Assembly: GCA_035717865.1 (NCBI GenBank)
Contig: DASTIE010000177.1
Span: 547 to 64,546, forward strand
DNA: 64,000 nucleotides
Direction: 5' to 3'
Source of the DNA: Candidatus Limnocylindrales bacterium
GTDB taxonomy: Bacteria > Chloroflexota > Limnocylindria > Limnocylindrales > CSP1-4
Position numbers and translations under genes: made by a program. Below, piece after piece: positions 7,035-30,914 of this stretch. Position 1 is the first letter of the stretch. The number at the start of each line of letters is the position of its first letter. Under the pieces are notes generated by a model. That model was given only the letters and a program-made list of their open reading frames with translations, was not told the origin of the DNA and made no database searches.

Positions 7035-7057
7035 CTATTGCGCACTTGCTCAATTAG
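7035..7057 (+). promoter_or_regulatory. Putative TetR-type operator CTATTG-N10-CAATTAG overlapping the pot operon promoter
   Basis: Near-identical to the perfect palindrome CTATTG-N10-CAATAG at 19072-19093. It is followed by TAGGGT ~15 nt before the potA start. Confidence 0.45.
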
Positions 7058-7074
7058 GGTACTCTCGGCGGGTC

Positions 7075-8244
7075 GTGATGCTCGCGCAGGCGCCTCAGGG
7101 CGACGTCAGGGCTGACCACCGGCCGGAGCCCCAGCCGGAGATCGCGCTCGATCGACTGACCAAGCGGTTCGGCGATGTGGTGGCGGTCGACGACATCTCC
7201 CTGACCATCCGCAGCGGCGAGTTCTTCTCGCTGCTGGGACCGTCCGGCTGCGGCAAGACGACGACGCTCCGGATGATCGGCGGCTTCGACCTGCCGAGCA
7301 GCGGACGGATCGACCTGCGGGGCCGCGACGTGACCCGGGAGCCGCCGGACAAGCGCCCGGTCAACATGGTCTTCCAGAGCTACGCCCTGTTCCCGCACCT
7401 CGACGTCGCGGGCAACATCGCCTTCGGGCTGAAGCGGCGCGGCGTGGACGCCGCGGAGATACGACGTCGCACGGGCGAGATCCTCGAGAAGGTCCACCTG
7501 CCGGGCTACGAGAAGCGGCGCACCAACCAGCTCTCGGGCGGGCAGCCGCAGCGCGTCGCGCTCGCGCGGGCGCTCGTGAACGAGCCCAACGTGCTCCTCC
7601 TGGACGAGCCGCTCGGAGCGCTGGACCTGAAGCTCCGCAAGCGCCTCCAGCTGGAGCTGAAGCGGATCCAGATGGCCGTCGGGATCACCTTCGTCTACGT
7701 GACTCACGACCAGGAGGAGGCGCTCACGATGAGCGACCGGATCGCGGTCATGCATCGCGGGAAGGTCGAGCAGGTCGGGACGCCGGAGGACCTCTACGAC
7801 CGGCCGCGGACGCCGTTCGTTGCCGACTTCATCGGCACGACGAACCTGCTGGCCGGCACGGTGACGGCCCTGCGCGACGGCGAATCCCTGATCCGCCTCG
7901 ACTCCGGCGACACATGTATCGCGGGCGCCGAGCGCTGCGTTCCGGGGCAGTCGATTCAGTTCAGCGTGCGTCCCGAGGCGATCCGGGTCGAGCGAGCGGA
8001 GGACCGCCCGGCCGACGTGTCGGGGGGCAACCGGAGCCGGCTGCTCGGCGCAATCGAGCAGGTCGCCTACCTCGGGTCGGCCGTCCAGTACCACATTCGA
8101 ACGGAAGGAGGCCTCGGCGTGTCGGTGCTCACATCCAGGTCGGGCCCGAGATTCGAATCCGGCAGCAAGGTCGTGCTTGCTTGGTCGCCTGCCGATGCCC
8201 TGATCCTGGGCGATCGGTCCAGCGAGATGGAGGATGCGTCATGA
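7075..8244 (+). CDS. potA: Spermidine/putrescine-type ABC transporter ATP-binding protein
   Basis: Walker A GPSGCGKTT, ABC signature LSGGQ, Walker B LLLDEP, and a C-terminal TOBE-like regulatory domain. Confidence 0.85.
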   Translation: MMLAQAPQGDVRADHRPEPQPEIALDRLTKRFGDVVAVDDISLTIRSGEFFSLLGPSGCGKTTTLRMIGGFDLPSSGRIDLRGRDVTREPPDKRPVNMVFQSYALFPHLDVAGNIAFGLKRRGVDAAEIRRRTGEILEKVHLPGYEKRRTNQLSGGQPQRVALARALVNEPNVLLLDEPLGALDLKLRKRLQLELKRIQMAVGITFVYVTHDQEEALTMSDRIAVMHRGKVEQVGTPEDLYDRPRTPFVADFIGTTNLLAGTVTALRDGESLIRLDSGDTCIAGAERCVPGQSIQFSVRPEAIRVERAEDRPADVSGGNRSRLLGAIEQVAYLGSAVQYHIRTEGGLGVSVLTSRSGPRFESGSKVVLAWSPADALILGDRSSEMEDAS

Positions 8245-9473
8245 CCGGAGACAGCAGGACGCCAGGGCGAGAGACGCCGTTCGACCTCGCGCTCGGGAAG
8301 CGCCTCACGGAGGCGCAATGGACCCGACGCGAGTTCATGGCGCGGGTCGCCGCGTTCGGGCTCACCGCGGCGCTCACCCAGCTCCTGGTCGCGTGCGGCC
8401 AGGCCGGCGCCAGCCCGTCGGCAGCCCCCGCGACGGCGACACCCGCGCCGGCCGGGACGATCGCCGCCGTCGCGACGCCGACGGCCGCACCCACGCCGAT
8501 CCCCGATCCGGAGCCGGAGCTCAACGTCTACAACTGGCTGGACTACATCGGCGACGGCGTCATCGAGTCGTTCGAGGAGAAGTACCCCGTCAAGGTCAAC
8601 TACGAGCTGTTCGACGACATCTACGCCGCGTACGAGAAGCTCGGTGACGACGGCAACGGCTACGACGTGTCCTTCCCGATCGGGGTCGACGTGCCCTCGT
8701 TCCGCGAGGCCGGCACGCTCCTGAAGCTCGACCAGTCGCTGATCCCGAACCTCGCCAACCTGGGACCCGAATGGTCGAACCCGGGCTACGACCCGGGCAA
8801 CCAGTACTCGGTCCCGTATGTCTGGTGGACGACGGGCATCGGCTACGACACGACCCGCCTGGAGGAGGTCCCCACGAGCTCCAACGTTCTGTGGGACCCG
8901 CGCTACAGGAACCACATCTCGCTCATGGACGACTACCAGGAGACGATGGGCCTGACCCTCATCCAGAAGGGCTTCTCTGCGAACACGACGGATCCAGCCG
9001 AGCTGGACCAGGCGATCGCGCGTCTGACCGAGGGCAAGCCGATCGTCCGGACCTGGACGAACGACACCATCTCGGCGATGACCGGCGGGGACATCTGGGT
9101 CGGCATGATCTGGGGCTCGGACCTGTACCAGATCTCGCTCGAGAACGAGAACATCGCGTACTTCATCCCGCAGGAGGGTGGCGTGCGAGGCTCGGACACG
9201 ATGGCGATCTACTCAGGGGCCGAGCATCCCATCGCGGCCCATCTGTTCATCAACCACATGCTCGACGCGCAGGTCAGCGCGGCGAACACGAACTTCATCG
9301 GCTACATGGGCCCGAACCTCGCGGCACAGGAGTTCATCGACGAGGCCATCCTCAACGACCCCGCGGTGAACCCGGACAAGGCGATCCTCGACAAGCTCGA
9401 GGAGCTGCTGGACCTGCCCAACGACGTCGACAAGCTGTACCTGGACCGCTGGCAGGCGTACCGGGCCGGCTGA
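8241..9473 (+). CDS. ABC transporter periplasmic substrate-binding lipoprotein (PotD/PotF-like)
   Basis: ATGA overlap with the potA stop. Signal peptide with lipobox (LLVACG), an Ala/Pro-rich linker, and a PotD-family SBP fold (YNWLDYIGD, WVGMIWGSDL). Confidence 0.8.
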   Translation: MTGDSRTPGRETPFDLALGKRLTEAQWTRREFMARVAAFGLTAALTQLLVACGQAGASPSAAPATATPAPAGTIAAVATPTAAPTPIPDPEPELNVYNWLDYIGDGVIESFEEKYPVKVNYELFDDIYAAYEKLGDDGNGYDVSFPIGVDVPSFREAGTLLKLDQSLIPNLANLGPEWSNPGYDPGNQYSVPYVWWTTGIGYDTTRLEEVPTSSNVLWDPRYRNHISLMDDYQETMGLTLIQKGFSANTTDPAELDQAIARLTEGKPIVRTWTNDTISAMTGGDIWVGMIWGSDLYQISLENENIAYFIPQEGGVRGSDTMAIYSGAEHPIAAHLFINHMLDAQVSAANTNFIGYMGPNLAAQEFIDEAILNDPAVNPDKAILDKLEELLDLPNDVDKLYLDRWQAYRAG

Positions 9474-9519
9474 CGTTGCGGCGCCGATCGACGAGCCATT
9501 CGCACGACCTCGCCGCTCG

Positions 9520-10419
9520 GTGACCTCGACCGCGATCGATTCACCGGGGGCCGCCGGCCTCCGCGAGCGAGCCGGGGATCGCCTGCGCAACGCCCTGCTG
9601 GTCCTGCCCGGGATCGGCTGGCTCCTGCTGTTCTTCGTCGTCCCGCTCGCGTTCATCGTCGTCATCAGCCTCGGGCGGCGTGACGAGCTGCACCGGATCG
9701 TCCTCGATCCGCTGACGCTCGAGAACTACGCGCAGGTCTTCAACCCGATCTTCCTGCCGACGATCGTCCAGTCGCTGTACCTGGCGACAGCGACGACCGT
9801 GGTGTCGCTGGCGATCGGCTTTCCCATCGCGTACTGGATCTCGCGCTACGGCGGGCACCGGAAGACCCTCCTGCTCGTCCTCGTCATGCTGCCGTTCTGG
9901 ACGAGCTGGCTGATCCGGACCTACTCCTGGATGATCGTGCTCCGGGACAACGGCGTCGTGAACCAGGCGCTCCAGGCGGTCGGGCTGACGCAGGAGCCGC
10001 TCATCCTCCTCTACACCGACTTCTCGGTGATCCTGGGCATGGTCTACGGCTTCCTGCCGTTCACGATCCTCCCGCTGTTCGTCTCGATCGACCGGCTGGA
10101 CCCGAACCTCATCGCGGCGGCCCGCGATCTGTATGCGGACGGGCGCCAGGCGTTCCTGCACGTCACGCTGCCGCTCGTGCGGCCGGGGCTGATCGCCGCG
10201 GCGCTGCTGACGTTCATCCCGGCGATGGGCGACTTCGTCACCCCGGACATCCTCGGCGGCGGGCAGGTCACGACGATCGCCAAGGTGATCCAGGAGCGCT
10301 TCCTCGACGGGCGCGACTGGCCGTACGGCTCGGCGCTGGGCTTCGTGCTCACGATCCTGACGCTGCTCGGCACGCTCGTCGCCCTGCGGACGCTCCGGCG
10401 CGAGGTCGTCGGCGAGTGA
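9520..10419 (+). CDS. ABC transporter permease (PotB-like)
   Basis: Six TM helices; permease signature region in the PotB family. Confidence 0.8.
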   Translation: MTSTAIDSPGAAGLRERAGDRLRNALLVLPGIGWLLLFFVVPLAFIVVISLGRRDELHRIVLDPLTLENYAQVFNPIFLPTIVQSLYLATATTVVSLAIGFPIAYWISRYGGHRKTLLLVLVMLPFWTSWLIRTYSWMIVLRDNGVVNQALQAVGLTQEPLILLYTDFSVILGMVYGFLPFTILPLFVSIDRLDPNLIAAARDLYADGRQAFLHVTLPLVRPGLIAAALLTFIPAMGDFVTPDILGGGQVTTIAKVIQERFLDGRDWPYGSALGFVLTILTLLGTLVALRTLRREVVGE

Positions 10420-11231
10420 GCCACGAGCGCAACCGCTGGCTCGCCGCGTTCGCGGTCACGGTCTACGCGTTCCTGTTCGCGCCGATCGTGATCCTGATCA
10501 TCTTCAGCTTCAACGACGCGCGACGGGTTTTCGTCTGGCGCGGCTTCACCACGGAGTGGTACGGCAGGCTGTTCGCGAACGACGATCTGCTCGACGCCGT
10601 GCTGGTCACGTTCCAGGTCGCGGCGGTGGCGGTGGTGGTCTCGACCGTCATCGGCGCTGCACTCGGGCTTGGGCTGGCGCGGTTGCGCGGACGGGGCCGC
10701 GCGCCGGCGGAGATGCTGCTGCTGCTGCCGATCGTCACGCCGGAGATCGTGATGGGCCTGTCGCTGCTGCTGTTCTTCCTGCAGCTGTTCGACAGCACCG
10801 GGTCCTTCGGGCAGCTCTCGATCGCCCACGTCACGTTCTGCATCTCGTACGTGGCGATCACCGTGCGGGCGCGCGCGGCGGGCATGGACCCGCAGCTGGA
10901 GGAGGCCGCGCGGGATCTCGGCGACACCGCGCTCGGGGCGCTGCGGCACGTCACGCTGCCGCTGATCATGCCGGCCGTGGTGGCGGGCGCGCTCCTGGCG
11001 TTCGCGCTCAGCTTCGACGACTACGTCGTGACGGTCTTCAACTCCGGCATTGGCACCACGACCCTCCCGCTGTACATCTACAGCGCGATCAAGTTCGGGG
11101 TCTCGCCGGAGATCAACGCGATCTCGACGATCATCGTCGCGGTGGTGTCGCTCGCGCTGCTGATCGCGTGGCGGCTCGGCGCGTTCCGCGGCGCGGCCCG
11201 CACCCCGGTCGCGGAGCCGGAGGCCGCGTAG
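10416..11231 (+). CDS. ABC transporter permease (PotC-like)
   Basis: Start overlaps the preceding stop; polytopic membrane protein of the PotC family. Confidence 0.8.
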   Translation: MSHERNRWLAAFAVTVYAFLFAPIVILIIFSFNDARRVFVWRGFTTEWYGRLFANDDLLDAVLVTFQVAAVAVVVSTVIGAALGLGLARLRGRGRAPAEMLLLLPIVTPEIVMGLSLLLFFLQLFDSTGSFGQLSIAHVTFCISYVAITVRARAAGMDPQLEEAARDLGDTALGALRHVTLPLIMPAVVAGALLAFALSFDDYVVTVFNSGIGTTTLPLYIYSAIKFGVSPEINAISTIIVAVVSLALLIAWRLGAFRGAARTPVAEPEAA

Positions 11232-11274
11232 GGGCTGCTGCGGCCGCCTCGAGTCCGCGGCACCGCCGCGGGCC

Positions 11275-12459
11275 CTACTTCCCGAGCGGGACCTGCTTCT
11301 TCGCGTCGAGGAATGGGATCGCGGCGCTGGCAGCGGGCCAGAGCTCACCGTCCGGCGCGACGATCTCGAGCTCGGTGCCGGGGCCGGACAGCTCGATCGG
11401 CAGCCAGACGTAGCCGATGTTCTTCTCGAGGCGCGGCGACCAGATGAGGTCGGTCACGGTCCCGACGGGCTCGCCGCGGTGCAGTGCCGGCCGCTTCTCC
11501 GAGAGCTCGAACGGCAGCGGGGCCCCGGGCGCCTCGATTCCCACCAGCTTCCGCGAGACTCCCTTGGCCCGGATCTCCTCGAGTGCGGCCTTGCCGATGT
11601 AGTCGGCCGCCTGCTCCTCGACGAGCCGCTCCAGGCCCATCACCTCGAACGGGTTGTTGTCGATCGTCATGTCCGAGCCGTAGTTGAAGATGCCGGCCTC
11701 GATGCGGCGGGCCTCCACGGGCGCGACCGGCCGGATGTCGAACTCCCTGCCCGCCTCGAAGACGCGATCCCACAGGTCGGCGCCGCGCGCCGGATCGCGC
11801 AGGTAGACCTCGTACCCGACCTCGCCCGTCCAGCCCGTCCGGCTGATGACGACGGGGATGCCGTCGACCTCGGTGGTAAGGGTCCAGTAGTACTTGATGT
11901 TGTCGATCGCCGGACCGAAGACCTTCCGCAGCGTGTCCTTCGACTTCGGGCCCTGGACCTGGATCGGGTAGATCTCGGGCTCACGGACCTTGACGTCCAT
12001 GCCCGAGTTGACCGCGATTCCGCGGGCATACAGGCCGGCGTCGCTGTCGGCGAGCGCCAGCCACCACCGGTTCTCCTCGACCCGGAGCAGCACCGGATCG
12101 TTCACGATCCCGCCGTCGTCCGCGGTGATGAGGACGTACTTGCCCTGCCCGACGGCGCACTTCGTCAGGTCGCGGCACGTCAGGAGGTTCGTGAAGGCGG
12201 ACGCGTCCGGGCCGGTGATCTCGACGATCCGCTCCACCGACACGTCCCAGACGGTGACGCCGTTCAGGAGCGCCCAGTATTCCTCCACCGGGTCGGCGTA
12301 GTAGCCGGGCAGGTACATGTGGTTGTAGATGTCGTAGGCCGAGCAGCCGGCGTCGAGGGTCTTCTCGAAGAACGGCGAGCGGCGGTACCAGGGCCCGAAG
12401 TAGAGGGTGCTGGACGTCGGCCGGGCGGCGGGTCGGGTGACGGTTTCGAGGGCATTCAT
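11275..12459 (-). CDS. GcvT-family aminomethyltransferase (folate-binding; stand-alone)
   Basis: Start taken at MNALETV (12459). GcvT fold motifs (WDVS, the conserved GYTGE motif (here TGWTGEVGYEV), folate-binding C-terminal barrel). Glycine cleavage T protein family, but not in a gcv context. Confidence 0.7.
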   Translation of the reverse strand: MNALETVTRPAARPTSSTLYFGPWYRRSPFFEKTLDAGCSAYDIYNHMYLPGYYADPVEEYWALLNGVTVWDVSVERIVEITGPDASAFTNLLTCRDLTKCAVGQGKYVLITADDGGIVNDPVLLRVEENRWWLALADSDAGLYARGIAVNSGMDVKVREPEIYPIQVQGPKSKDTLRKVFGPAIDNIKYYWTLTTEVDGIPVVISRTGWTGEVGYEVYLRDPARGADLWDRVFEAGREFDIRPVAPVEARRIEAGIFNYGSDMTIDNNPFEVMGLERLVEEQAADYIGKAALEEIRAKGVSRKLVGIEAPGAPLPFELSEKRPALHRGEPVGTVTDLIWSPRLEKNIGYVWLPIELSGPGTELEIVAPDGELWPAASAAIPFLDAKKQVPLGK

Positions 12460-12536
12460 CGGGTGGGCTCCTTTGCGCTGCGTGGCGAGTTGCGCTCCGT
12501 GGCGGGGTGCGCGGGCGTGCTGGCGCCGCGTCGGGA

Positions 12537-14813
12537 TCATCCTTCGGCGCCGCCAGGGTCTTCGTAGTCCCAGGCCGGATCCGCAACGTCCGCGGTGACG
12601 ACCAGCGCATCGACGGCTATGGCACCGCCGGGGCCCGCGATGACCGGGTTGAGGTCCACCTCCAGCCACGTCGGGTTCGCGAGCATCGCCCGGCCCAGCG
12701 CGGCGACCGCCTCGGCGACGGCACGCCGCCTGACGGTCGGCAGGTTGCGCGGACCGTCGAGGATGCGGGCGCCGCGGAGCTCGCCCAGCATCGCGAGCGC
12801 CTCGTCCTCCGTGACCGGGGCAAGGCGCACGGCGACATCGTCGATGGCCTCGGCCAGGATCCCGCCGAGGCCCACCAGCACCAGCGGTCCGAACTGCGCG
12901 TCGCGGCGGCCGCCGACGATCAGCTCGACACCGGGCTTGACCATGGGCTGGACCAGGACGCCGCGCGATGCGGTCGGGTGCATGGCGCGGATCGCGCGCC
13001 CGAGCGTCGTCGGGTCGGCGATTCCGAGGGCGACGCCCCCGGCATCGGTCTTGTGGGCGAAGCCCGGCGCGTCCACCTTGACGACCACCGGCCAGCCGTA
13101 GCCCTGTGCCGCTGCGGTGGCCTCGGCGACCATGGCGTCCTCGTCATCGATCCGGACCGCGGTGGATTCGACCATCGGCAGGCCTGCGGCGCGCAGGAGC
13201 TCAAGCGACTCGCGCTCGGGCATGGCTCGCGGCGTCGCTGAGCTCGGCCGACCCACGCGGCCGTGGATGTAGCGCGGGGTCGCGGACGCGAGGGCGGGCC
13301 ACGCGGCCCGGACGGGGCCGTCGGTGATCCGCGCGGCCCGCCGGCGTTCCCACCACGCCAGCTTCGCGATGGCCCCGAACGCGGTCCGCGTGCCGCGGAG
13401 GATCGGCACCCCGCCCGCGGCGTCCATCTGGGCCTCCACCTCTTGCGTCACGTCGCCGGAGGTGAGCGAGACGAAGACGGGCAGGACCTGCGGCGCCTCG
13501 GCCGTCGCGGCGACGAGCTCCGCGCCCAGCTCCACGGCCAGTGCCACTTCGCCCGGCTGCGAGCGGTACGGGAAATCATGGACCAGTGCGACGACGTCGT
13601 AGGCGCCGCTCGCGACGAACGCCTCGAAGCAGGCACGGTACGTCGGGGCGCCTTCGTCGGCGCCCCACGGGTCCAGCGGGTTCTCGATGTGGGTGAGCGT
13701 CGGGAGGGCCTGGGCGATCCGGGCGCGAGCCTCCGCGGGGATCGGCGGCAGGTCCAACCCGAGCGTGGGCGCGAGGTCGGCGACCAGGGAGCCCTCACCG
13801 GTCGAGACGGTCAGGACGCCCGTCCGTCCCTTCCCCACCCCGCGCCCCAGGCGCCGAGCCCGGCTCGCCAGCGCGGCAGCCTCGATGAGGTCGTCGAGGT
13901 CGTCGAACCGGACGACGCCCGCGGCCCGGAGCGCGGCATCGACCGCGCGGTCGTCGCCGGCGAGGTTGCCGGTGTGGGCCACGGCGGCCGCACGTGCCTG
14001 CGAGCTCCGCCCGACCTTCAGCGCGAGGATCGGCTTGCCCTCCGCCAGCGCCCGGTCCGCGAGAGCCAGGAAACGCTCCGGCCGCTTGAAGCCCTCGACG
14101 AACAGGACGATCGAGTCCGTGTGGGGATCGTCGAGGCATGCGGCGAGGTGGTCGCAGAGGTCGAGGACGGCTTCCGAGCCGACGCTGACGATCCGGCTCC
14201 AGCCGATCCGCGTGCCGGCGTGGACGAACGCGTCCGTCACGCTCCCGGACTGGGCGATCGCCGCGGTGCCGCCGCGGCGCAGGTTCGGCGGCAGGTCGTC
14301 GATGTACGTCGCGGACGGCGCCGTGAGGTCGACGAGGCCCATGCAGTTCGGGCCGAGGAGCGCGATGCCGGCCTCGCGGGCGATCGCGGCGACCTCGCGC
14401 TGCATCGCCGCGGCAGGCTCCCCGCCCTCCACGATCCCGCCGCCCGGGATGATCACGGCGCGTACGCCCGCCGCCGCTACCTCGCGAACGACGCCCGCGG
14501 CGCGCAGCGGGTTCAGGGCCACGACGACCGCGTCGGGCACCTCCGGCAGGCCGGCGAGATCCGGGTAGGCGGGACTGCCGTCGATCTCCTCGTAGCGGGG
14601 ATTCACGAAGAAGCAGCGGGTCTCGCTCCCGACCTTGGCGATGTTGTCCCGCATGGTCCGCGCGAGGTCGGAACGCGGCGACGCGCCCACGACCGCCACG
14701 GAGCGGGGCGCGTACAGCGGGCGGAGGTCGATCTCCGGGTGCCGCGCGGCGCCCGGTGTCGTGGCCTCGCTCGCCTTCGCGGTCTCGCCCGTCGCCCCCG
14801 CCGCCGCGCTCAT
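12537..14813 (-). CDS. Acyl-CoA synthetase (NDP/ADP-forming), fused alpha+beta domains
   Basis: N-terminal CoA-binding domain (VAVVGAS..NPR), a succinyl-CoA-synthetase-like alpha domain and an ATP-grasp domain. ATGA overlap with the upstream ACAD stop. Confidence 0.75.
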   Translation of the reverse strand: MSAAAGATGETAKASEATTPGAARHPEIDLRPLYAPRSVAVVGASPRSDLARTMRDNIAKVGSETRCFFVNPRYEEIDGSPAYPDLAGLPEVPDAVVVALNPLRAAGVVREVAAAGVRAVIIPGGGIVEGGEPAAAMQREVAAIAREAGIALLGPNCMGLVDLTAPSATYIDDLPPNLRRGGTAAIAQSGSVTDAFVHAGTRIGWSRIVSVGSEAVLDLCDHLAACLDDPHTDSIVLFVEGFKRPERFLALADRALAEGKPILALKVGRSSQARAAAVAHTGNLAGDDRAVDAALRAAGVVRFDDLDDLIEAAALASRARRLGRGVGKGRTGVLTVSTGEGSLVADLAPTLGLDLPPIPAEARARIAQALPTLTHIENPLDPWGADEGAPTYRACFEAFVASGAYDVVALVHDFPYRSQPGEVALAVELGAELVAATAEAPQVLPVFVSLTSGDVTQEVEAQMDAAGGVPILRGTRTAFGAIAKLAWWERRRAARITDGPVRAAWPALASATPRYIHGRVGRPSSATPRAMPERESLELLRAAGLPMVESTAVRIDDEDAMVAEATAAAQGYGWPVVVKVDAPGFAHKTDAGGVALGIADPTTLGRAIRAMHPTASRGVLVQPMVKPGVELIVGGRRDAQFGPLVLVGLGGILAEAIDDVAVRLAPVTEDEALAMLGELRGARILDGPRNLPTVRRRAVAEAVAALGRAMLANPTWLEVDLNPVIAGPGGAIAVDALVVTADVADPAWDYEDPGGAEG

Positions 14814-15979
14814 CCGACGACCTTGTCGACCCCGCGCCGCTCAAGCGAGCGCGCGATGATCAGGCGCTGGATCTCGCTCGTGCCCTCCCAGATCCGGTCC
14901 ACGCGGAGCTCGCGCATGTAGCGCTCGGCGGGGTTGTCCCGCATGTAGCCGCGACCGCCGAACACCTGGACGACGCGGTCGGCGCAGATGAACGCGGCCT
15001 CGGAGGCGAAGAGCTTCGCGAGGGACGCCTTCGCGTGGACGACCTTGGGCTCGACGTCCGCATCGGCCATCGCCGCGGCTTCGCGGGTCAGCAGCCGCGC
15101 CGCCGACGCGTCGGCCGCCGAGTTGGCCAGGGGGAACGACACGCCCTGGAAGTCGAAGATCCGTTGCCCGAACTGGACCCGCTCCGTCGCCCACTCGACC
15201 GCGATCGTGAGCAGCCGCTCCATGGCCCCGGTGCAGCGCGCGCCGATGTGGATCCGCTCCGTCACGAACCACTCGTTCGCGAGATTGTCGGCCTCCCCCA
15301 CCCCGCCCAGGCGTGCCGTGTCCGGCACGCGCACGTCCTCGAGCACGAACTGCGGATGCCGATCCGCGAACGTGTGCATGTAGTTCGGGTCGTCCTGCAT
15401 GGTCAGGCCGGGCGCGTCGTAGTCGACCAGGAACAGCGTGGGCCGCCGTTCGGAACCCTCCACGACCATCGCCTGCACGACCATGAAGTCGGTGTTGTCG
15501 GGGCCCGTCACGAACCACTTCTCGCCGTTGATGATCCAGTCGCCGCCGTCCCGCGTCGCCGTCGTCTGCAGCGACCGGGCATCCGAGCCCGCACCCGGCT
15601 CCGTCACGGCATACGCGCCAAAGCGCTCACCGCGGAGTGACGGCTCCAGGTACCGCTTCCGCTGGTCCGCGTCCGCGTGTGCGAGGACCTCGTACGCGCC
15701 CGGAACATACGACCACAGGCCGCCTGTCACCTGCCCGTACTGCTCATGGACGAGCACCTGCTCGAGCACGGACCAGCCACCACCGCCGACCGAGACCGGC
15801 AGCTCGCCGCCGGCGAGGCCCGCCTGGATCGCCGCCTGCCGCAGCTCACGAGCCTGGTGCGGCGGCAGCCGCCCGCCCGCGCGCTCGAACTCGATCTCGA
15901 CGGGCTGCAGGACCTCGACCACGAACCGCCGCGCGCGGTCGCGCAGGGCCTCCTGGGCGGGCGTCAGCGAGAGGTCCAC
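14810..15979 (-). CDS. Acyl-CoA dehydrogenase
   Basis: ACAD N-terminal, middle and C-terminal domain pattern (AYAVTEPGAGSD, GEKWFVTG). Confidence 0.8.
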   Translation of the reverse strand: MDLSLTPAQEALRDRARRFVVEVLQPVEIEFERAGGRLPPHQARELRQAAIQAGLAGGELPVSVGGGGWSVLEQVLVHEQYGQVTGGLWSYVPGAYEVLAHADADQRKRYLEPSLRGERFGAYAVTEPGAGSDARSLQTTATRDGGDWIINGEKWFVTGPDNTDFMVVQAMVVEGSERRPTLFLVDYDAPGLTMQDDPNYMHTFADRHPQFVLEDVRVPDTARLGGVGEADNLANEWFVTERIHIGARCTGAMERLLTIAVEWATERVQFGQRIFDFQGVSFPLANSAADASAARLLTREAAAMADADVEPKVVHAKASLAKLFASEAAFICADRVVQVFGGRGYMRDNPAERYMRELRVDRIWEGTSEIQRLIIARSLERRGVDKVVG

Positions 15980-16000
15980 CTGACGCGTCCGCTCAGGCGC

Positions 16001-17728
16001 TCAGCTGCCGGCCGCCGCGGCGCCGGCCTTCGCCGAGGCGCCCTTCGCCGAGGAACCGGACCCGTTGCCGCTGCCGGCTTTCGCGCGGTCGATCGCCTTC
16101 GCCCGATCCTTGAGCACTGCCTGCGCCGCCAGCTTGCCCGGCGCGCCCATGACACAGCCGCCGGGATGCGTGCCGGAGCCGCACTGGTAGTAGCCGTCGA
16201 TCGGGGTGCGGTAGTTGGCCCAGCCGATTGCGGGCCGCATGAACCACATCTGGGGCGCGAGGAACTCGCCCGCGAAGATGTTGCCCTCGCTGAGGCCGAC
16301 GGTCCGCTCGATGTCGAGCGGGGTCCGGATCTCCCGCTGGAGCACCAGCGAGCCGAACCCGGGGAAGAACGACTCGAGCGTCGCCTGGACGGTGTCGCCG
16401 AGGCCCTCCCTCTCCGTGTCCCAGTCGCTCTCGCGCAGCTCGTACGGCGCGTACTGGACGAAGCAGCTCATCACGGCCTTGCCGGCCGGCGCCATGTCCG
16501 GATCCACGGTCGACTGGATGGCCGTGTCGAGGTACGGCCGCTTCGAGTACCAGCCGTATTTGGCGTCGTCGAAGGCCCGCTCGAGGTACTCCATCGACGG
16601 CCCGATGTTGGTGAACCCGCGGTACTGATCGGTGCGGTCGCCGAGGGCCGGGTACTTCGGAATCCCGTCGAGCGCGAAGTTGACCTTCGCCGAGGTTCCC
16701 TGGAAGCGGAACCGCCGGATCTGGTCCACGAGCTCCGTCGGAAGCTCACGGGGGTCGACCAGCTCCATGAAGGTTCGTCGCGGATCGAGGGCCGAGATCA
16801 CGATCGGGGCGTGGAACTCGGCGCCGTCCGCGAGGGCCACGCCGGTCGCGCGACCCTCGGTCGTGATCACCCGCTCGACCGGCGATTCGAGCCGGATCTC
16901 CACGCCGAAGCTCTCCGCCGCGCGCGCAAGCACCTTCGTGAACCCGCCGTTGCCCTGCTTGTGGAAGGCCCACGCGCCGAACTCGCCGTCGTGCTCGCCG
17001 ATGAGGTGGTAGAGCAGCACTAGCCCGGAGCCCTGCGAGTACGGCCCGACCTTCGTACCGATGATCGCCGTGGATGCGAGGTAGCCCTTCAGCAGGTCCG
17101 ACTCGAAGTAGTCGTCGAGGAAGTCCGCGGCCGAGCCGGTCAGCAGGCGGATCGCGTCGTGCAGGACCTTCCGGTCGAGCTTCCGGAAGCGCGAGCCCAT
17201 CGCGGCGAGGCGGATGAGCTCCTCCGGGTCGTCGCTCCAGAAGTCCGGCGGCGCCTCGTCCATGAGCGGCTTGAGCGCCTGGAGGACGCGGTTGACGTCG
17301 TGGTTGTAGGCGTCGTACGCGTCGGCGTCATGGGCCGAGTGCCGGGCGATCTCCTTGTGGTTCTCGCCGTGATCCTGCCCGAAGAGCATGTAGTCGCCGT
17401 CCTCCTTCGGGCAGAAGGTCGTCGGCATGAGGATCGGCATGAAGCCGTGCTTCACGAGATCCAGCTCGTGGATGATGTCCGGCCGGAGCAGGCTCAGCGC
17501 GTACGAGAAGCTCGTGAACCAGAAGCCCGGCCGGAGCTCCTCCGTGATCGCCGCGCCGCCGAAGATCGGCCGGCGCTCGAGGACGAGCGTCTTCAGGCCG
17601 GCCCTGGCGAGGTAGGCGGCGTTCGTGAGCCCGTTGTGGCCGCCGCCGATGACGATCGCGTCCCAGGTCCGATCGTCGCGAGTGGCCTTCGCGCCGTTGC
17701 CGGCGCTGGACCCGTTGCTCTTCGCCAT
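16001..17728 (-). CDS. FAD/NAD(P)-binding oxidoreductase (phytoene-desaturase/amine-oxidase-like)
   Basis: Start at MAKSNG (17728). Rossmann dinucleotide motif AIVIGGGHNGL. The 915 aa track ORF 16001-18748 is a read-through of two genes. Confidence 0.7.
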   Translation of the reverse strand: MAKSNGSSAGNGAKATRDDRTWDAIVIGGGHNGLTNAAYLARAGLKTLVLERRPIFGGAAITEELRPGFWFTSFSYALSLLRPDIIHELDLVKHGFMPILMPTTFCPKEDGDYMLFGQDHGENHKEIARHSAHDADAYDAYNHDVNRVLQALKPLMDEAPPDFWSDDPEELIRLAAMGSRFRKLDRKVLHDAIRLLTGSAADFLDDYFESDLLKGYLASTAIIGTKVGPYSQGSGLVLLYHLIGEHDGEFGAWAFHKQGNGGFTKVLARAAESFGVEIRLESPVERVITTEGRATGVALADGAEFHAPIVISALDPRRTFMELVDPRELPTELVDQIRRFRFQGTSAKVNFALDGIPKYPALGDRTDQYRGFTNIGPSMEYLERAFDDAKYGWYSKRPYLDTAIQSTVDPDMAPAGKAVMSCFVQYAPYELRESDWDTEREGLGDTVQATLESFFPGFGSLVLQREIRTPLDIERTVGLSEGNIFAGEFLAPQMWFMRPAIGWANYRTPIDGYYQCGSGTHPGGCVMGAPGKLAAQAVLKDRAKAIDRAKAGSGNGSGSSAKGASAKAGAAAAGS

Positions 17729-17730
17729 GG

Positions 17731-19062
17731 TCAGGCCGTCCTTCGCTGCGGGTTGAACAGGGGGAGCTTGGAGACCTCGGCGTCGAAGTACTCGTAGCGG
17801 TGGCGCACGCCCGCCTCCAGCTTGACCTTCGAACCCGGGGCCTGGCGGTCGATTGGCACACGCGCGAGGGCGATGTGCCGCTGGAGCATCGGCGAGTACA
17901 TCTGGCTCGTGGCGTAGCCGAGCTGGTTCAGCTCGTCGTCGTAGACGTAGTACTCGTCCTGGACCGGCGTGTGGTCCTTGGGCGGGATGAGGCCCGCCTC
18001 GTCGTAGATCCGGTCGTAGTCCTTCCAGTCGACGACCAGCCCGGTCATGACCCAGCGCGAGCTCCGATCGTGCAGCTCCCGCTTGATCGCGTCGCGGCCG
18101 ATGAACGCGCGGCCGTTCGGGCTCGAGCCGTTGCCGTTCGACGCGGCCTTCCGACCGCCCGCTCCCGCTGCCCCAGCGGCCCCCGCCGCCGCGCCGGCGC
18201 CGGGCGCGAGATCGCGGAACATCCAGCCGAACCCGAGCTCGATCGGTGTCGAGCGGTCGGCGTCCGTCCAGGCGTACCGCGACGAGTGGAAGTCGACGTC
18301 CAGGAGGATCAACCCCGCCTCGATGCGCGCCATGTACAGCGCGGTCATGCCGAACGGGATCAGCGCGCGCGGCTCGCCGACCTCGAAGATCGCGTCCCAC
18401 ACCCGCAGCGCGCCGTCTGCCGGCGTCCAGACCTCGTAGCCGAGGTCGCCCGTGTAGCCCGTCCGCGACACGATCACGTCCACGCCGGCGATCTTCGTAC
18501 GCGTGAGCGCGAAGTAGTCGAGGGCGGCGATCGCCGGGGCCACGGCGGCGAGAATCTCGCGCGACCGGGGGCCCTGGACGGAGAGGATGCCCCAGGCGTC
18601 CGTGACGTCCTCGATCGCGAGGTCGAGGCTGCCGGCGAGGCCCTGGAAGTAGGCAAGGTTGGGCTCGGCGGCCGTCAGGAGGTACTCGTCCTCGGAGAGC
18701 CGCAACAGGACGCCGTCCTCGATCACGAAGCCGCGGTCGTCGCACCACAGCGTGTATTGCGCCCGGCCCACGGCGAGCTTGCGGGTGTCCCGCGCGAGGA
18801 CGCCGGCGAGGTAACGCTGCGCGTCCGGGCCCTGGAAGCGGTACTTGTAGAGCGGCGACGTGTCAAACGCGCCGGCCGCGTTCCGGATGGCGAAGTACTC
18901 GAACTTCTCGGACATCTGGTAGCGCTGGGCGACGAGGCAGTTCGACCAGTGCTCCCAGAGGCCCGTCTCGTTCCGGGCGCTCGTTCGCTCGTGGAAGGGC
19001 GTCGTCCGGATCACGTCGAGTGTCGCTCCCCTGCCCGCTGCGCTGCGTTGGACCCCAGGCAT
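17731..19062 (-). CDS. GcvT-family aminomethyltransferase, second stand-alone copy
   Basis: GcvT-like motifs (ILSVQGP, SRTGYTGDLGYEV), with a Gly/Ala-rich insertion. First gene of the minus-strand operon. Confidence 0.7.
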   Translation of the reverse strand: MPGVQRSAAGRGATLDVIRTTPFHERTSARNETGLWEHWSNCLVAQRYQMSEKFEYFAIRNAAGAFDTSPLYKYRFQGPDAQRYLAGVLARDTRKLAVGRAQYTLWCDDRGFVIEDGVLLRLSEDEYLLTAAEPNLAYFQGLAGSLDLAIEDVTDAWGILSVQGPRSREILAAVAPAIAALDYFALTRTKIAGVDVIVSRTGYTGDLGYEVWTPADGALRVWDAIFEVGEPRALIPFGMTALYMARIEAGLILLDVDFHSSRYAWTDADRSTPIELGFGWMFRDLAPGAGAAAGAAGAAGAGGRKAASNGNGSSPNGRAFIGRDAIKRELHDRSSRWVMTGLVVDWKDYDRIYDEAGLIPPKDHTPVQDEYYVYDDELNQLGYATSQMYSPMLQRHIALARVPIDRQAPGSKVKLEAGVRHRYEYFDAEVSKLPLFNPQRRTA

Positions 19063-19071
19063 GGTAGAGCG

Positions 19072-19093
19072 CTATTGGACAGTTGCGCAATAG
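19072..19093 (+). promoter_or_regulatory. Perfect palindrome CTATTG-N10-CAATAG in the divergent promoter region between the GcvT-like gene and tetR
   Basis: Inverted repeat 10 nt from the GcvT-like start (19062) and 16 nt from the tetR GTG (19109). Followed by TAGGTG. Confidence 0.5.
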
Positions 19094-19108
19094 GTGTAGG
19101 CTCCGCGC

Positions 19109-19726
19109 GTGGCACGCATGTCCCCCGAGGAGCGGCGCGAGGCGATCGTCGACGCTGCACTCGCCGTGGCGCGGCGCAAGGGACTGGCGGCGACGACGGT
19201 GCGCGACGTCGCGACGGAGATGGGCACCTCGAGCGGCCTGATCCACCACTACTTCAACTCGATGGACGAGGTGCTCGCGGCGGCATTCGAGCGGGTCGCG
19301 CGCGACGACCTCGAGCAGACCGAGGTGCTGCTCCAGGAGATCGGCGACCCCCAGGAGCTGATCCGGGCGTTCCTCGCCTCGTACGCCCCCGTCGGCGACG
19401 ACTGGGCCTTCCAGCTGTGGCTCGACGCCTGGGCCGAGGCGGCCCGGCGCCCCGTGCTCCGCGAGGCCTCGTCTCGGCTGAACCTCGCCTGGGCGGCCCT
19501 GCTCGAGCGTGCGATCAGGGCCGGCGTGGCGGACGGCACGTTCCACTGCGACGACCCCACGGCCGCGGCGTGGCGGATCCTCTCGGTCATCGACGGGCTG
19601 GCCCTCCAGGTGGTCGCACACCGCACCATCCTCGATCGCGCGGACATGCTCGCCTGGGCCGCGACCGCCGCGGAGCGGGAGCTGGCGCTTCCGCCCGGCG
19701 GGCTGCGAGTGGCGCCGCCGCAGTAA
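19109..19726 (+). CDS. TetR-family transcriptional regulator
   Basis: N-terminal HTH LAATTVRDVATEMGTSSGLIHHYF. GTG start. Confidence 0.85.
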   Translation: MARMSPEERREAIVDAALAVARRKGLAATTVRDVATEMGTSSGLIHHYFNSMDEVLAAAFERVARDDLEQTEVLLQEIGDPQELIRAFLASYAPVGDDWAFQLWLDAWAEAARRPVLREASSRLNLAWAALLERAIRAGVADGTFHCDDPTAAAWRILSVIDGLALQVVAHRTILDRADMLAWAATAAERELALPPGGLRVAPPQ

Positions 19727-19805
19727 TCGGCTGCGCCCCGACGAGAGGGCGGTGCGAGGCCGGCGCGAGCGCGACAGCGCACCGGGGCGCGACGTCCGCC
19801 CTCGT

Positions 19806-19822
19806 TGCCACAGGACTGCAAC
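19806..19822 (+). promoter_or_regulatory. Motif copy 4, TGCCACAGGACTGCAAC (dyad GTTGC-N9-GCAAC), 23 nt upstream of the ATG at 19846
   Basis: TACTGT (TANNNT) lies 8-13 nt upstream of the ATG, consistent with a leaderless transcript. Confidence 0.5.
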
Positions 19823-19845
19823 AGGCGATTCCTACTGTCCCGGTC

Positions 19846-20433
19846 ATGCTGACGTTCCATCGCCGCCTCGCCGCGCTTCTGACCGTCGTGAGCCTGGCCC
19901 TTGGCGCCTGTGGCGGTTCCGCGGCCACCAGCCCGCCGGGCGCGGGCAATCCCACTGCAGGTCCGGGTGCGACGCCCGGCGACGCCGCCGGGACGCCCGC
20001 CGGAGTCGCGACCCAGGCTTCCGGTGCTCCTGGCGGTCCCGATGCCGCCACGGACCCGTGCAGCCTCCTGACCGCCGAGGAGATCAAGACGGCCACCGGC
20101 TTCTCGCCCATCAGCGCGACCCCCGGCCCGACGATGGGCGTCTTCGATGTCGGGTGCGAGTGGGAGCTGGACAACGAGGGCAGCGGCGTGCCCTGGAGCA
20201 TCGTGATCGGCCTGCGAGCCGATGGCGGGCGCGAGTACTACGACGACTACTTCGCACCCCCGGTCGGCGAGGGCGAGGTGCTCCAGGGTGTCGGAGACGC
20301 CGCCATCCAGACGGACATCGGCGACGTGAACGCGGTCCGGAACGACGTGATGTTCAGCGTCAGCTACATCGAGTTCCCGTCTCGAAACGACGTGCCCGTT
20401 GCCCTCGCGAAGCTCATCGCGAGCAAGCTGTGA
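19846..20433 (+). CDS. DUF3558-like secreted lipoprotein
   Basis: MLTFHRRLAALLTVVSLALGACGG has a lipobox. A Gly/Pro/Ala linker is followed by DPCSLLTAEEI..GC.W, the motif shared by the paralogs at 20430, 21156, 27037 and 31014. Confidence 0.7.
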   Translation: MLTFHRRLAALLTVVSLALGACGGSAATSPPGAGNPTAGPGATPGDAAGTPAGVATQASGAPGGPDAATDPCSLLTAEEIKTATGFSPISATPGPTMGVFDVGCEWELDNEGSGVPWSIVIGLRADGGREYYDDYFAPPVGEGEVLQGVGDAAIQTDIGDVNAVRNDVMFSVSYIEFPSRNDVPVALAKLIASKL

Positions 20434-21104
20434 GCGACCTCCGAACGACCGGCGCGACCACGAACGGGAAGGCCCGGGCGAGCCTCGTCACCAGCCGTCC
20501 ATCGGCCACGATTGCCGCCTTTGCGGCGGCGCTCCTGCTCGCGGCCTGCTCCGGGGCGCCGAACCCACCCGGCGCCCCCGGCGCGACAGGGGCCCAGGGC
20601 GGGCCCGCCGGAGCCACTGCGGCGCCCGCCGGCCCGACCGCCACGCAGGCGCCCGGCGGCGCTTCCGCGACGGCGGCTCCCGGCGGCCCGGGCGCGACGC
20701 TCGCGCCCGGAGCGAGTCCCAGCACGGACGCCTGCGCGGTCCTGTCCGCGACAGACATCCAGGCCGTCACGGGGGCGACGCTCGTGACGACCGTGCCCGC
20801 CCAGCAGCAGGGAATCTTCACCAACGGCTGCCTCTACGAGCTTAATGACGGGTCGACGACGACCACGGTCAACCTCGGCGTCATGGTGCCCGGCGGTCGC
20901 GCGTACTACGACGCCAACGTCCGCAACGCCGGCTACGGCTCGATCGAGGGCCTGGGCGAGGCGGCGGTCAAGGCCCGCGCGGGCGCAGTGATGGTCCTCG
21001 CCGGAGACGTCCTCTTGAGCGTGCAGTACTTCGGCCCGACCGGGCCGGACGACAGCACGGCCGCGGAGTTCGCGACGAAGATCCTCGCGAACCTCGGGCT
21101 GTAG
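20430..21104 (+). CDS. DUF3558-like lipoprotein, paralog
   Basis: GTGA overlap with the preceding stop. Lipobox LLLAACSG; DACAVLSATDI..GCLYEL motif. Confidence 0.6.
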   Translation: MSDLRTTGATTNGKARASLVTSRPSATIAAFAAALLLAACSGAPNPPGAPGATGAQGGPAGATAAPAGPTATQAPGGASATAAPGGPGATLAPGASPSTDACAVLSATDIQAVTGATLVTTVPAQQQGIFTNGCLYELNDGSTTTTVNLGVMVPGGRAYYDANVRNAGYGSIEGLGEAAVKARAGAVMVLAGDVLLSVQYFGPTGPDDSTAAEFATKILANLGL

Positions 21105-21115
21105 GGCCACATGGC

Positions 21116-21132
21116 TGCCACAGGACTGCAAC
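21116..21132 (+). promoter_or_regulatory. Motif copy 5, TGCCACAGGACTGCAAC, 23 nt upstream of the ATG at 21156
   Basis: Identical core to copy 4. The ORF-track ATG at 21111 lies inside the motif and is rejected as the start. Confidence 0.5.
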
Positions 21133-21155
21133 AGGGCGTCCGTAGCGTTCGGCGC

Positions 21156-21764: not shown

Positions 21765-21771
21765 GGCGGAC

Positions 21772-23574: not shown

Positions 23575-23701
23575 CCGAGCCCGGCTGATCCCACGCGAAC
23601 GCCTTCGCGTGGACGACGGTCGTGGCAGCGCGCATTGGCTACTCTCGCGCCACGCCCGCAGCGGGGGTCGCTGACGGCGGGCTCGCCCCCGTGGAGGGTC
23701 C

Positions 23702-26506: not shown

Positions 26507-26559
26507 ACCCCCCGGTATCGCGGGGCGGCGCATCGTGTGACGCTGCGGCAACGGGCGGC

Positions 26560-26576
26560 TGCCACGGAATTGCAAC
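26560..26576 (+). promoter_or_regulatory. Motif copy 6, TGCCACGGAATTGCAAC, 23 nt upstream of the GTG at 26600
   Basis: Consensus copy. Confidence 0.5.
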
Positions 26577-26599
26577 GACGCTCCGCAACCCTTCCGGTC

Positions 26600-30860: not shown

Positions 30861-30914
30861 GTTCGTCGCCAACACGACCGGCCGGACCTCGAGCTCGCGA
30901 CCGTCGCACGGGCT

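Follow-up and report, generated by a model that had tools for sequence, protein, structure and literature searches.

A predicted catabolic island for methylated onium compounds in Limnocylindria that combines a DmdA-like methyltransferase with a PYROXD2-family flavoprotein and a GcvT-fold neighbor

Introduction

What could two stand-alone proteins of the GcvT family accomplish in an operon that also encodes an ADP-forming acyl-CoA synthetase (ACD), an acyl-CoA dehydrogenase (ACAD), and a flavoprotein? This question is raised by a stretch of 64,000 nucleotides from Candidatus Limnocylindrales bacterium (GenBank assembly GCA_035717865.1, contig DASTIE010000177.1), called the window throughout this text, in which the five genes follow each other on the minus strand in the order gcvT2-FAD-ACAD-ACD-gcvT1, with a divergent tetR gene on one side and genes for a Pot-type ABC importer on the other (Table 1). 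An original prediction, made from the nucleotide sequence alone, had considered this operon a candidate pathway for tetrahydrofolate (THF)-dependent demethylation which follows the logic of DmdA, DmdB, and DmdC in the catabolism of dimethylsulfoniopropionate (DMSP), with an ADP-forming ligase. Our analysis leads us to propose, with a probability of roughly 60%, that positions 7035–19726 constitute a TetR-repressed catabolic island whose substrate is a methylated onium compound, imported from outside, with a positive charge and with a carboxylate or a moiety that can be turned into one.

Results

The island is conserved as a unit and probably forms one regulon

The ACD of the window is 100% identical to a protein from a Candidatus Limnocylindrales MAG (metagenome-assembled genome) in NCBI, and an actinomycete origin, which the high G+C content of the window might suggest, is rejected. 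A scan of 185,579 species genomes identifies 309 relatives. Apart from four short contigs binned elsewhere, the best 80 of these carry names of Chloroflexota-type metagenome-assembled genomes (MAGs), i.e., Limnocylindrales, Chloroflexota, or “uncultured Chloroflexia.” Mapping ten window proteins onto the loci of the relatives distinguishes two arrangements. In type a (12 other Limnocylindria loci), the full ten-gene island, consisting of TetR, GcvT2-FAD-ACAD-ACD-GcvT1, and PotCBDA, is syntenic with the window, its proteins are 62–95% identical to their window counterparts, and the islands share a chromosomal site between scpAB-rluB and cmk-ispH-der. In type b (71 loci), the arrangement present in most Limnocylindria, the ACAD-ACD pair occurs alone, without GcvT, FAD, or Pot genes; it is commonly preceded by a gene for a lactaldehyde dehydrogenase-like aldehyde dehydrogenase (52 loci with 55 clustered copies), and in 41 loci a gene for an enoyl-CoA hydratase follows it. 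Type-a and type-b ACDs form reciprocally monophyletic sister clades. The comparison of genomic contexts in relatives, envisaged in the original prediction, therefore finds the whole ten-gene island intact and syntenic in 12 related loci, and for this reason its arrangement is not due to chance. Isolate and metagenome names of the MAGs suggest an origin from soil, peat (palsa), and groundwater.

The 64 kb contain just two exact copies of the 10-mer CTATTGCGCA, at 7035–7044 (+) and at 19084–19093 (−), each of them part of an operator-like palindrome (Table 1). For the pattern CTATTG-N10-CAATAG, two matches are found in the window where 0.07 are expected. The palindrome in the gcvT2/tetR spacer is kept at the same place in four relatives (L001, L002, L004, and L013), a similar one precedes potA in one relative (L013), and type-b loci are nearly devoid of it, with one match in 1.26 Mb. 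As the palindrome precedes both transcription units, has just two sites in the window, and is conserved in relatives, importer and enzyme operon probably form one regulon, both being under the control of TetR. The earlier suggestion that importer and operon share an operator is thus borne out by the common 22-bp palindrome.

GcvT1 resembles DmdA

The best NCBIfam model for GcvT1 is that of the DMSP demethylase DmdA (NF009133; 318.3 bits, below the cut-off of 410), and its best match in the PDB is DmdA from Pelagibacter (3TFH, 240 bits). GcvT1 is 35–36% identical to DmdA and 47% identical to paralogues from Phaeobacter inhibens P88 and Lichenihabitans. In a phylogenetic tree of 20 GcvT-family sequences, a DmdA-like superclade including GcvT1 is split from GcvT, Tdm, and GcvT2-like proteins at 89% bootstrap support. 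Within the superclade, DmdAs of the validated type from Pelagibacter and Phaeobacter pair at 100%, and GcvT1 stands outside this pair, clustering with the paralogues from P88 and Lichenihabitans at 79%. All nine DmdA-like sequences, including GcvT1, possess an N-D-P motif at the position where GcvT and Tdm carry D-D, and the other 11 sequences of the set show D-D or E-D. In structures of T-proteins, an aspartate of the D-D motif activates N10 of folate. Direct methyl transfer to N5 of folate has been described for DmdA (PMC5395565), and the loss of the first aspartate, which is Asn in the N-D-P motif, fits a transfer of methyl rather than methylene units.

The genomic contexts of GcvT1-like genes point in the same direction. 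In Marivivens, the gene is followed by dmdB, dmdC, and dmdD, and a related Pot-like ABC system is encoded there too. In Lichenihabitans, metF stands before the gene, with purU and folD following, and in Halomicrococcus a BCCT gene, folD, and metF precede it. In Phaeobacter and Loktanella it is accompanied by genes for OsmC, an enoyl-CoA hydratase, and an AMP-forming CoA ligase. Model and PDB matches, clade, N-D-P motif, and gene contexts therefore agree in placing GcvT1, at the level of sequence, as a DmdA-type methyltransferase, though not as a demonstrable DMSP demethylase, and it probably forms 5-methyl-THF from an onium methyl donor. The comparison of the operon with the DmdA-DmdB-DmdC logic is fair, with GcvT1 inside the DmdA-like superclade and with relatives that adjoin dmdB-dmdC-dmdD or metF-purU-folD.

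Several replicons show further neighbors of GcvT1-like genes. On a Lichenihabitans plasmid (L095, 3928–11218), the GcvT1-like gene is accompanied by those for a Pot-like ABC system, an aminotransferase, and an FAD-binding oxidoreductase, a set that would suit the breakdown of an amino or hydroxy acid with a sulfonium or ammonium group. Haloarchaeal GcvT1-like genes, on a plasmid of Haloarcula marina (L100) and in Halomicrococcus (L097), occur with genes for dihydrofolate reductase, MetF, FolD, a BCCT transporter, and a large FAD oxidoreductase. On the Haloarcula plasmid, metF and the gene for the large FAD oxidoreductase accompany the GcvT1-like gene, which amounts to the same two-stage logic, and these contexts hint at folate-dependent betaine demethylation in haloarchaea.

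Could the island then be a DMSP-specific, terrestrial demethylation route? GcvT1 would act as DmdA, converting DMSP to methylmercaptopropionate (MMPA) and 5-methyl-THF, the ACD would stand in for the AMP-forming DmdB and the short ACAD for DmdC, a hydratase encoded elsewhere would free methanethiol, and flavoprotein and GcvT2 would remove the second methyl group from MMPA or methanethiol to yield methylene-THF. DmdA is indeed the best characterized relative of GcvT1, and the Marivivens operon, with its related Pot-like system, also speaks for such a route. However, GcvT1 remains under the DmdA cut-off at its low identity and belongs to a sister clade which retains the GcvT-like TGE.G motif, where DmdA has SKQGG. 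GcvT1 is not an orthologue of the validated DmdAs, and DMSP is therefore just one candidate substrate.

GcvT2 and a PYROXD2-family flavoprotein form a pair found across phyla

The best matches of GcvT2 are the folate domains of trimethylamine N-oxide demethylase and of SoxA, and the folate domain of dimethylglycine oxidase is matched as well. In the tree, GcvT2 forms a clade of 99% bootstrap support with the “aminomethyltransferase family” GcvT proteins from alphaproteobacterial FAD-FAD-GcvT clusters, and it retains an acidic E-D pair at the D-D motif. GcvT2 is probably an enzyme that forms 5,10-methylene-THF. An Ala/Gly-rich low-complexity insert (LAPGAGAAAGAAGAAGAGGRKAASNGNGSSPNG) at residues ~290–325 and a second insert of ~20 amino acids are missing in the alphaproteobacterial homologues.

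These alphaproteobacterial GcvT2 relatives are invariably preceded by a flavoprotein homologue (40–44% identity), present once or twice, in clusters with TetR and a Pot-type ABC importer, for example in Rhizobium sp. SL42, Fuscovulum, Parasedimentitalea, Shinella zoogloeoides, and Shinella sumterensis. The clusters often also encode class-III aminotransferases, alpha subunits of Rieske oxygenases, an NADH:flavin oxidoreductase, a cupin of the DMSP-lyase family, or a protein of the 3-keto-5-aminohexanoate-cleavage family (BKACE). In six of the nine flavoprotein contexts inspected outside Limnocylindria a GcvT-family gene is adjacent, a Pot-type importer is present in six of the nine, and a BKACE gene is among the neighbors; GcvT is missing from three, one of which places the flavoprotein gene directly after a CoA ligase gene. 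The cupin in the FAD-FAD-GcvT cluster of Fuscovulum would favor DMSP as substrate, whereas the other flavoprotein contexts are amine-catabolic, and we know of no S-demethylase composed of a flavoprotein plus GcvT, which also counts against the DMSP route.

An exhaustive search of 1.84 billion representatives, with cluster names taken from NCBI and UniRef, assigns 2,230 clusters (50% identity) to the flavoprotein family at E ≤ 1e-30. Full-length members with 38–40% identity to the window flavoprotein include animal PYROXD2 (oyster and mayfly) and an unnamed choanoflagellate protein; in BLASTP, PYROXD2 of the oyster Magallana gigas shows 39% identity over 543 residues (E 5e-120). Based on this full-length homology to animal PYROXD2, which is on a level with that to the alphaproteobacterial homologues, the window flavoprotein can be assigned to the PYROXD2 family. 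The earlier designation as FAD oxidoreductase holds insofar as Pfam recognizes a flavoprotein, and it is refined here to a PYROXD2-family protein in a cross-phylum gene pair with GcvT2. Among the matches listed for the flavoprotein at the 90%-identity level, all are at least 79% identical. A search with a mixed Chloroflexota/Alphaproteobacteria profile yields a 49%-identical metagenomic homologue which adjoins GcvT and Rieske genes, and otherwise returns the same near-identical set. The AlphaFold model of the flavoprotein is poor (pLDDT 53.8, pTM 0.50), and Foldseek searches with it permit only a placement in the CrtI/amine-oxidase superfamily (TM 0.3–0.4).

Three further loci are worth mentioning. 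On a plasmid of Paraburkholderia sp. PREW-6R (L093, 7237–11693), a pot operon contains a PYROXD2-like gene between potC and potA (potB-potC-FAD-potA). A plasmid of S. sumterensis (L086, 6035–12755) encodes a hydratase, an ADP-forming CoA ligase, a 3-hydroxyacyl-CoA dehydrogenase, a PYROXD2-like protein, and a bona fide-type GcvT with a BKACE gene close by, a parts list like that of the window but without ACAD. On pSymA of S. meliloti (L089, 9443–16673), the closest plasmid homologue of GcvT2 by coverage adjoins a Pfam-less ORF of 362 amino acids and genes for a PurU-like formyltransferase, a class-V aminotransferase, a 2-hydroxyacid dehydrogenase, and serine hydroxymethyltransferase.

To our knowledge, PYROXD2 is an orphan enzyme to which no biochemical function is assigned. 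In humans, the HPS1/PYROXD2 locus has been confirmed by replication as a quantitative trait locus for trimethylamine in urine and dimethylamine in plasma and has also been linked to asymmetric dimethylarginine and caprolactam, the causal gene being disputed (PMC3169529, PMC9286311).

According to a more conventional interpretation, GcvT1 and GcvT2 would be ordinary T-proteins of glycine cleavage and the flavoprotein a carotenoid desaturase or ketolase. Pfam does detect GCV_T domains, and the best NCBIfam match of the flavoprotein is CrtO. However, with the NCBIfam GcvT model GcvT1 and GcvT2 reach 168.1 and 169.6 bits, respectively, about half of the cut-off of 300, and both fall outside the clade of the true GcvTs from T. 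maritima and B. subtilis. For the flavoprotein, the CrtO score of 266.8 bits is a quarter of the cut-off of 1000, that for crtI_fam is 100.9 (cut-off 238), and the match to CrtI (4DGK) is 66 bits; its 39% identity to PYROXD2 compares with 17% in the Foldseek alignment to the CrtI structure. Neither gcvH and gcvP nor crt genes are encoded in the 64-kb window. We regard this interpretation as refuted as far as can be judged from sequence, and its chances as vanishingly small. The original prediction had likewise denied both GcvT homologs a place in glycine cleavage, and the phylogenetic placement it had called for sorts GcvT1 with DmdA-like proteins and GcvT2 with alphaproteobacterial FAD-linked GcvTs.

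The acyl-CoA synthetase is related to DddX

The best PDB match of the ACD is the ATP-dependent DMSP lyase DddX (7CM9; 290 bits, 30.6% identity), followed by archaeal CoA ligases for 3-hydroxypropionate (3-HP) and 4-hydroxybutyrate (4-HB) with 263 and 232 bits. Mutagenesis has shown H292, W391, E432, Y181, D208, and F435 of DddX to be important (PMC8163506); among them, H292 is the phosphohistidine, and W391 and F435 bind the sulfonium. Five of these six residues are kept in the ACD (as H280, W383, E422, Y170, and D194), F435 being replaced by Leu. The position of W391 is occupied by Gly or Val in the archaeal ligases and by Cys in the Shinella ACD, and the retention of this tryptophan in the window protein therefore hints at a cationic acyl substrate. 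That the nearest solved relative is specific for DMSP and that its cation-pi Trp is kept also speaks for the DMSP route. Type-b loci lack the demethylase genes and conserve the DddX-like residues just as well (in the type-b example L020, 7126–13076, the W, E, and H residues are present, being invariant in type b as well), and E432 has a Glu counterpart in the archaeal 3-HP-CoA ligase. For these two reasons lyase activity cannot be inferred. With DddX as its nearest solved relative, the ACD may be a ligase-lyase. Among plasmids, only one partial match to the ACD was found.

The ACAD possesses its catalytic Glu at the position known from medium-chain acyl-CoA dehydrogenase (..WEGTSEIQ..), and in the PDB it matches generic short-chain ACADs best (1UKW, 194 bits). 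The protein is no orthologue of DmdC, to which it is 26% identical over a partial length (389 versus 586 amino acids), another point against the DMSP route. Its top NCBIfam match is the acryloyl-CoA reductase AcrC (226.6 bits, cut-off 640).

These similarities allow one to imagine a pathway that starts with a lyase. The ACD would be a true ligase-lyase of the DddX type which converts a 3-onium-propionate (DMSP or beta-alanine betaine) to acryloyl-CoA and dimethyl sulfide or trimethylamine, the ACAD would serve as acryloyl-CoA reductase or propionyl-CoA dehydrogenase, and the three folate-linked proteins would demethylate the leaving group. The retention of five catalytic or binding residues, among them the proposed base E432, the AcrC match, and the hydratase and aldehyde dehydrogenase beside the sister ACDs of type b, as would be needed for the disposal of acryloyl-CoA, are in accordance with this idea, and the dddX cluster of Psychrobacter has an aldehyde dehydrogenase, too. 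However, E432 is matched by Glu in a non-lyase, the AcrC score is far under its cut-off with ordinary short-chain ACADs matching equally well, and the overall identity to DddX is low. Moreover, the methyl donor of a DmdA-type enzyme has to be an onium compound, and neither dimethyl sulfide nor trimethylamine is one. We consider a lyase-first pathway distinctly unlikely, more so than the DMSP demethylation route.

The binding protein suggests a cationic ligand other than spermidine

Whereas the PotA ATPase passes TIGR01187, the substrate-binding protein reaches 177.2 bits in comparisons with the PotD and PotF equivalog models and fails the PotD cut-off of 582. From the residues of E. coli PotD which we take to be the ligand residues according to the PotD literature, 7 of 13 are kept (W34, Y37, D168, E171, W229, D257, and Y293). 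An acidic residue is present at PotD position 35 or 36 (E36 as Asp), so that all four acidic positions stay acidic; W255 is Gly in every type-a locus, and T35, S83, Y85, and Q327 are also altered. The pattern is the same in both binding-protein variants of type-a loci. It argues for a ligand that is cationic but not plain spermidine.

The polyamine-binding acidic residues lend some support to a division of the island into two unrelated functions, with TetR, Pot importer, flavoprotein, and GcvT2 devoted to a methylated polyamine-like amine and the ACAD-ACD pair serving as an ordinary activation pair for short-chain acids of the propionate or 3-hydroxypropionate type. Such modules do exist separately: the pair in the 71 type-b loci, and the FAD-GcvT-Pot-TetR submodule in Alphaproteobacteria without ACAD or ACD. 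Yet type-a ACDs form a clade of their own, sister to type b, and in 12 of 12 type-a loci their genes lie between those for the flavoprotein and GcvT1, at junctions that overlap or nearly do so. Elsewhere, PYROXD2-like genes recur beside genes for CoA ligases and beta-oxidation, and members of the GcvT1 clade recur beside CoA ligases. Two separate functions thus seem slightly less probable still than a lyase-first pathway.

Layout of the island and its surroundings

Table 1. Features of the island and of its operator-like sites in the 64-kb window.
Feature	Position	Strand	Remarks
Operator-like palindrome CTATTGCGCACTTGCTCAATTA	7035..7056	+	Upstream of potA, 19 nt before the GTG start; near copy of the gcvT2/tetR site
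potA-like ABC ATPase	7075..8244	+	Pfam ABC_tran + TOBE_2; TIGR01187 potA 362.7 bits (cut-off 355.6); PRK09452 PotA 380 bits (cut-off 482)
PotD-family lipoprotein substrate-binding protein	8241..9473	+	N-terminus Tat-like or lipobox; best PDB match 4EQB PotD, 188 bits
potB-like permease	9520..10419	+	PRK09497 PotB, 241.5 bits
potC-like permease	10416..11231	+	PRK09500 PotC, 245.4 bits
GcvT1, DmdA-like	11275..12459	-	Pfam GCV_T 9.7e-42 + GCV_T_C
ACD, fused alpha/beta ADP (NDP)-forming acyl-CoA synthetase, DddX-related	12537..14813	-	CoA_binding_2 + Succ_CoA_lig + ATP-grasp_5
ACAD, short-chain-type acyl-CoA dehydrogenase, 389 aa	14810..15979	-	All three ACAD domains
FAD flavoprotein, PYROXD2-family (CrtI/amine-oxidase superfamily)	16001..17728	-	Pfam Amino_oxidase/NAD_binding_8
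GcvT2, GcvT-family putative folate-binding partner of flavoprotein	17731..19062	-	GCV_T 1.4e-55 + GCV_T_C
Operator-like perfect palindrome CTATTGGACAGTTGCGCAATAG	19072..19093	.	Inside the 46-bp gcvT2/tetR intergenic spacer
TetR-family repressor, BetI-type C-terminal domain, divergent	19109..19726	+	TetR_N 5.9e-14; TetR_C_6 1.5e-16; BetI TIGR03384 67.9 bits, under its cut-off

Genes in the window (~72% G+C) were called with the guidance of third-position GC content (GC3), which amounts to 0.92–0.95 and agrees with the coding frames of the five minus-strand genes. Together with the Pfam domains, this confirms the five genes at the coordinates first predicted. The gcvT2/FAD junction is TGA-CC-ATG, i.e., 2 nt with gcvT2 upstream, the FAD/ACAD gap comprises 21 nt, ACAD and ACD overlap by ATGA, and the ACD/gcvT1 gap of 77 nt contains an AAGGAG ribosome-binding site. 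The importer genes (potA, the binding-protein gene, potB, and potC; 7075–11231) are located downstream of the five-gene operon and convergent to it. A consensus scan for promoters and terminators gave no match.

As stated in the original prediction, gcvH and gcvP do not occur in the context of either GcvT homolog, and metF, folD, purU, and genes for enoyl-CoA hydratase and aldehyde dehydrogenase are likewise absent from the 64 kb. The remainder of the window is of a housekeeping nature (cmk-acyltransferase, scpA/B, rluB, xerC-like, recN-like, NAD kinase, dxs, xseA, efp, and others). Between tetR and an ABC-2/TetR-rluB-scpBA block lie ~13 kb (19800–33000) with genes mostly without Pfam match, among them those for a BTAD-AAA-TPR regulator (23702–26506), a protein of 1074 amino acids (27636–30860), and an InlB-B-repeat protein (31638–33020). 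In the relatives L001–L003 the same ABC-2/TetR-rluB-scpBA block is found within ~1 kb of tetR, and the ~13-kb segment looks like an insertion.

Discussion

From gene presence, family placement, and linkage, which were observed, we infer all of the pathway chemistry that follows. The PotD-type ABC system would import a methylated onium compound, with TetR controlling importer and operon. GcvT1 would move the activated methyl group of a quaternary ammonium or sulfonium center directly to THF, forming 5-methyl-THF. Remaining N-methyl (less likely S-methyl) groups would be oxidized by the PYROXD2-family flavoprotein, and the translationally coupled GcvT2 would capture the methylene unit as 5,10-methylene-THF. 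The DddX-related ACD would activate the carboxylate, and elimination might accompany this step in case the beta position still bears the onium group; the short-chain ACAD would desaturate the alpha-beta bond. Hydratase, aldehyde dehydrogenase, and C1-folate enzymes encoded elsewhere would complete the pathway.

As for the substrate, a trimethylammonio-alkanoate such as beta-alanine betaine or gamma-butyrobetaine is the candidate we favor, with chances somewhat short of even. Our preference is due to the fact that only a poly-methylated nitrogen needs both demethylation chemistries, that the flavoprotein-GcvT2-Pot-TetR submodule resides among amine-catabolic genes elsewhere, that the regulator is BetI-like, and that the names of isolates and metagenomes point to non-marine sources. 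Since both nearest characterized enzymes, DmdA and DddX, act on DMSP, we regard DMSP as the chief competitor. The names pointing to soil, peat (palsa), and groundwater stand against it, and we judge DMSP as substrate, as well as the DMSP-specific route as a whole, to be unlikely, though to be taken seriously. A methylated polyamine-like amine is an improbable substrate, and what is left of our expectation belongs to other compounds.

Several observations weigh against a catabolic island for methylated onium compounds. GcvT1 scores under the DmdA model cut-off and does not join the validated DmdA pair. Between the ACD and DddX, identity amounts to only 30.6%, the archaeal 3-HP and 4-HB ligases match nearly as well, and the DddX-like residues of the ACD are just as conserved in type-b loci without demethylase genes. 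The binding protein resembles those for polyamines more than those for betaines. Genes of the PYROXD2 family are also found beside CoA ligases without a GcvT neighbor, and the flavoprotein could for this reason act on an acyl-CoA instead of an N-methyl group, a point on which the AlphaFold model (pLDDT 54) is too poor for active-site inspection. Finally, metF, folD, purU, hydratase, and aldehyde dehydrogenase are all missing from the window.

Within our reading of the island as an onium-degrading one, the most far-reaching proposal is that the PYROXD2-family flavoprotein and the adjacent GcvT-fold partner constitute an unrecognized two-component, folate-coupled demethylase, distributed from Chloroflexota to Alphaproteobacteria, which here would act downstream of a DmdA-type methyltransferase so that all onium methyls are stripped. 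We put this forward tentatively and consider it rather doubtful. If true, animal PYROXD2 would be a methylated-amine oxidase, which would explain the control of trimethylamine and dimethylamine by HPS1/PYROXD2, and soil Limnocylindria would be unrecognized consumers of betaine- or DMSP-type compounds. For human biology, the island provides a first genomic-context hypothesis on PYROXD2. In terms of enzymology, the island would join DmdA-type methyl transfer with oxidative, GcvT-coupled demethylation on a flavoprotein fold not known from such a role, and it employs a DddX-related ADP-forming ligase in place of an AMP-forming one. As the source names suggest soil, peat, and groundwater and the matches listed for the flavoprotein abound in sequences of at least 79% identity, the pathway probably consumes methylated osmolytes on land in amounts that matter. 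With a DMSP-like substrate, it could either give rise to dimethyl sulfide, methanethiol, or methylamines or bypass them.

Comparison with known systems

Literature searches on the themes of dmdA in Limnocylindria, DMSP in Chloroflexi, betaine demethylation, and PYROXD2 as demethylase found no description of this cluster, and, as judged from sequence models, the island fails membership in the DmdA, DmdC, GcvT, CrtI/CrtO, and PotD families. With the DMSP demethylation pathway DmdA-DmdB-DmdC-DmdD of Ruegeria, Pelagibacter, and Phaeobacter it shares a stand-alone DmdA-like GcvT with N-D-P motif, activation to a CoA derivative, and an acyl-CoA dehydrogenase, and relatives of GcvT1 occur in genuine dmdBCD operons. 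In contrast, the ligase of the island is ADP-forming (ATP-grasp) and not AMP-forming, its ACAD is much shorter than the 586-residue DmdC, DmdD is lacking, a Pot-type importer and a flavoprotein/GcvT pair are added, and the host is a non-marine member of the Chloroflexota. DddX (7CM9; eLife 2021, PMC8163506), the best solved match, exhibits the same fused domain order as the ACD and, like it, is linked to an importer of charged, osmolyte-like compounds, whereas the island possesses neither the partners dddB and dddC nor a BCCT transporter, and F435 is not kept.

Dimethylglycine dehydrogenase and oxidase, sarcosine dehydrogenase, and heterotetrameric sarcosine oxidase resemble the island in the proposed oxidation of N-methyl groups by a flavin with C1 transfer to THF by a GcvT fold. 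However, the flavoprotein of the island is PYROXD2/CrtI-like and not of the DAO family, and two separate, translationally coupled polypeptides are encoded; the alphaproteobacterial clusters differ further in having two flavoprotein paralogues per GcvT. Animal PYROXD2 matches the window flavoprotein over its full length at 38–40% identity, but animals lack an adjacent GcvT partner, and PYROXD2 is connected with trimethylamine and dimethylamine by genetics alone. Finally, the importer of the island has the same four-component architecture as the polyamine importers PotABCD and PotFGHI, from which it differs in a binding protein far under the PotD and PotF cut-offs and in its predicted co-regulation with demethylase genes.

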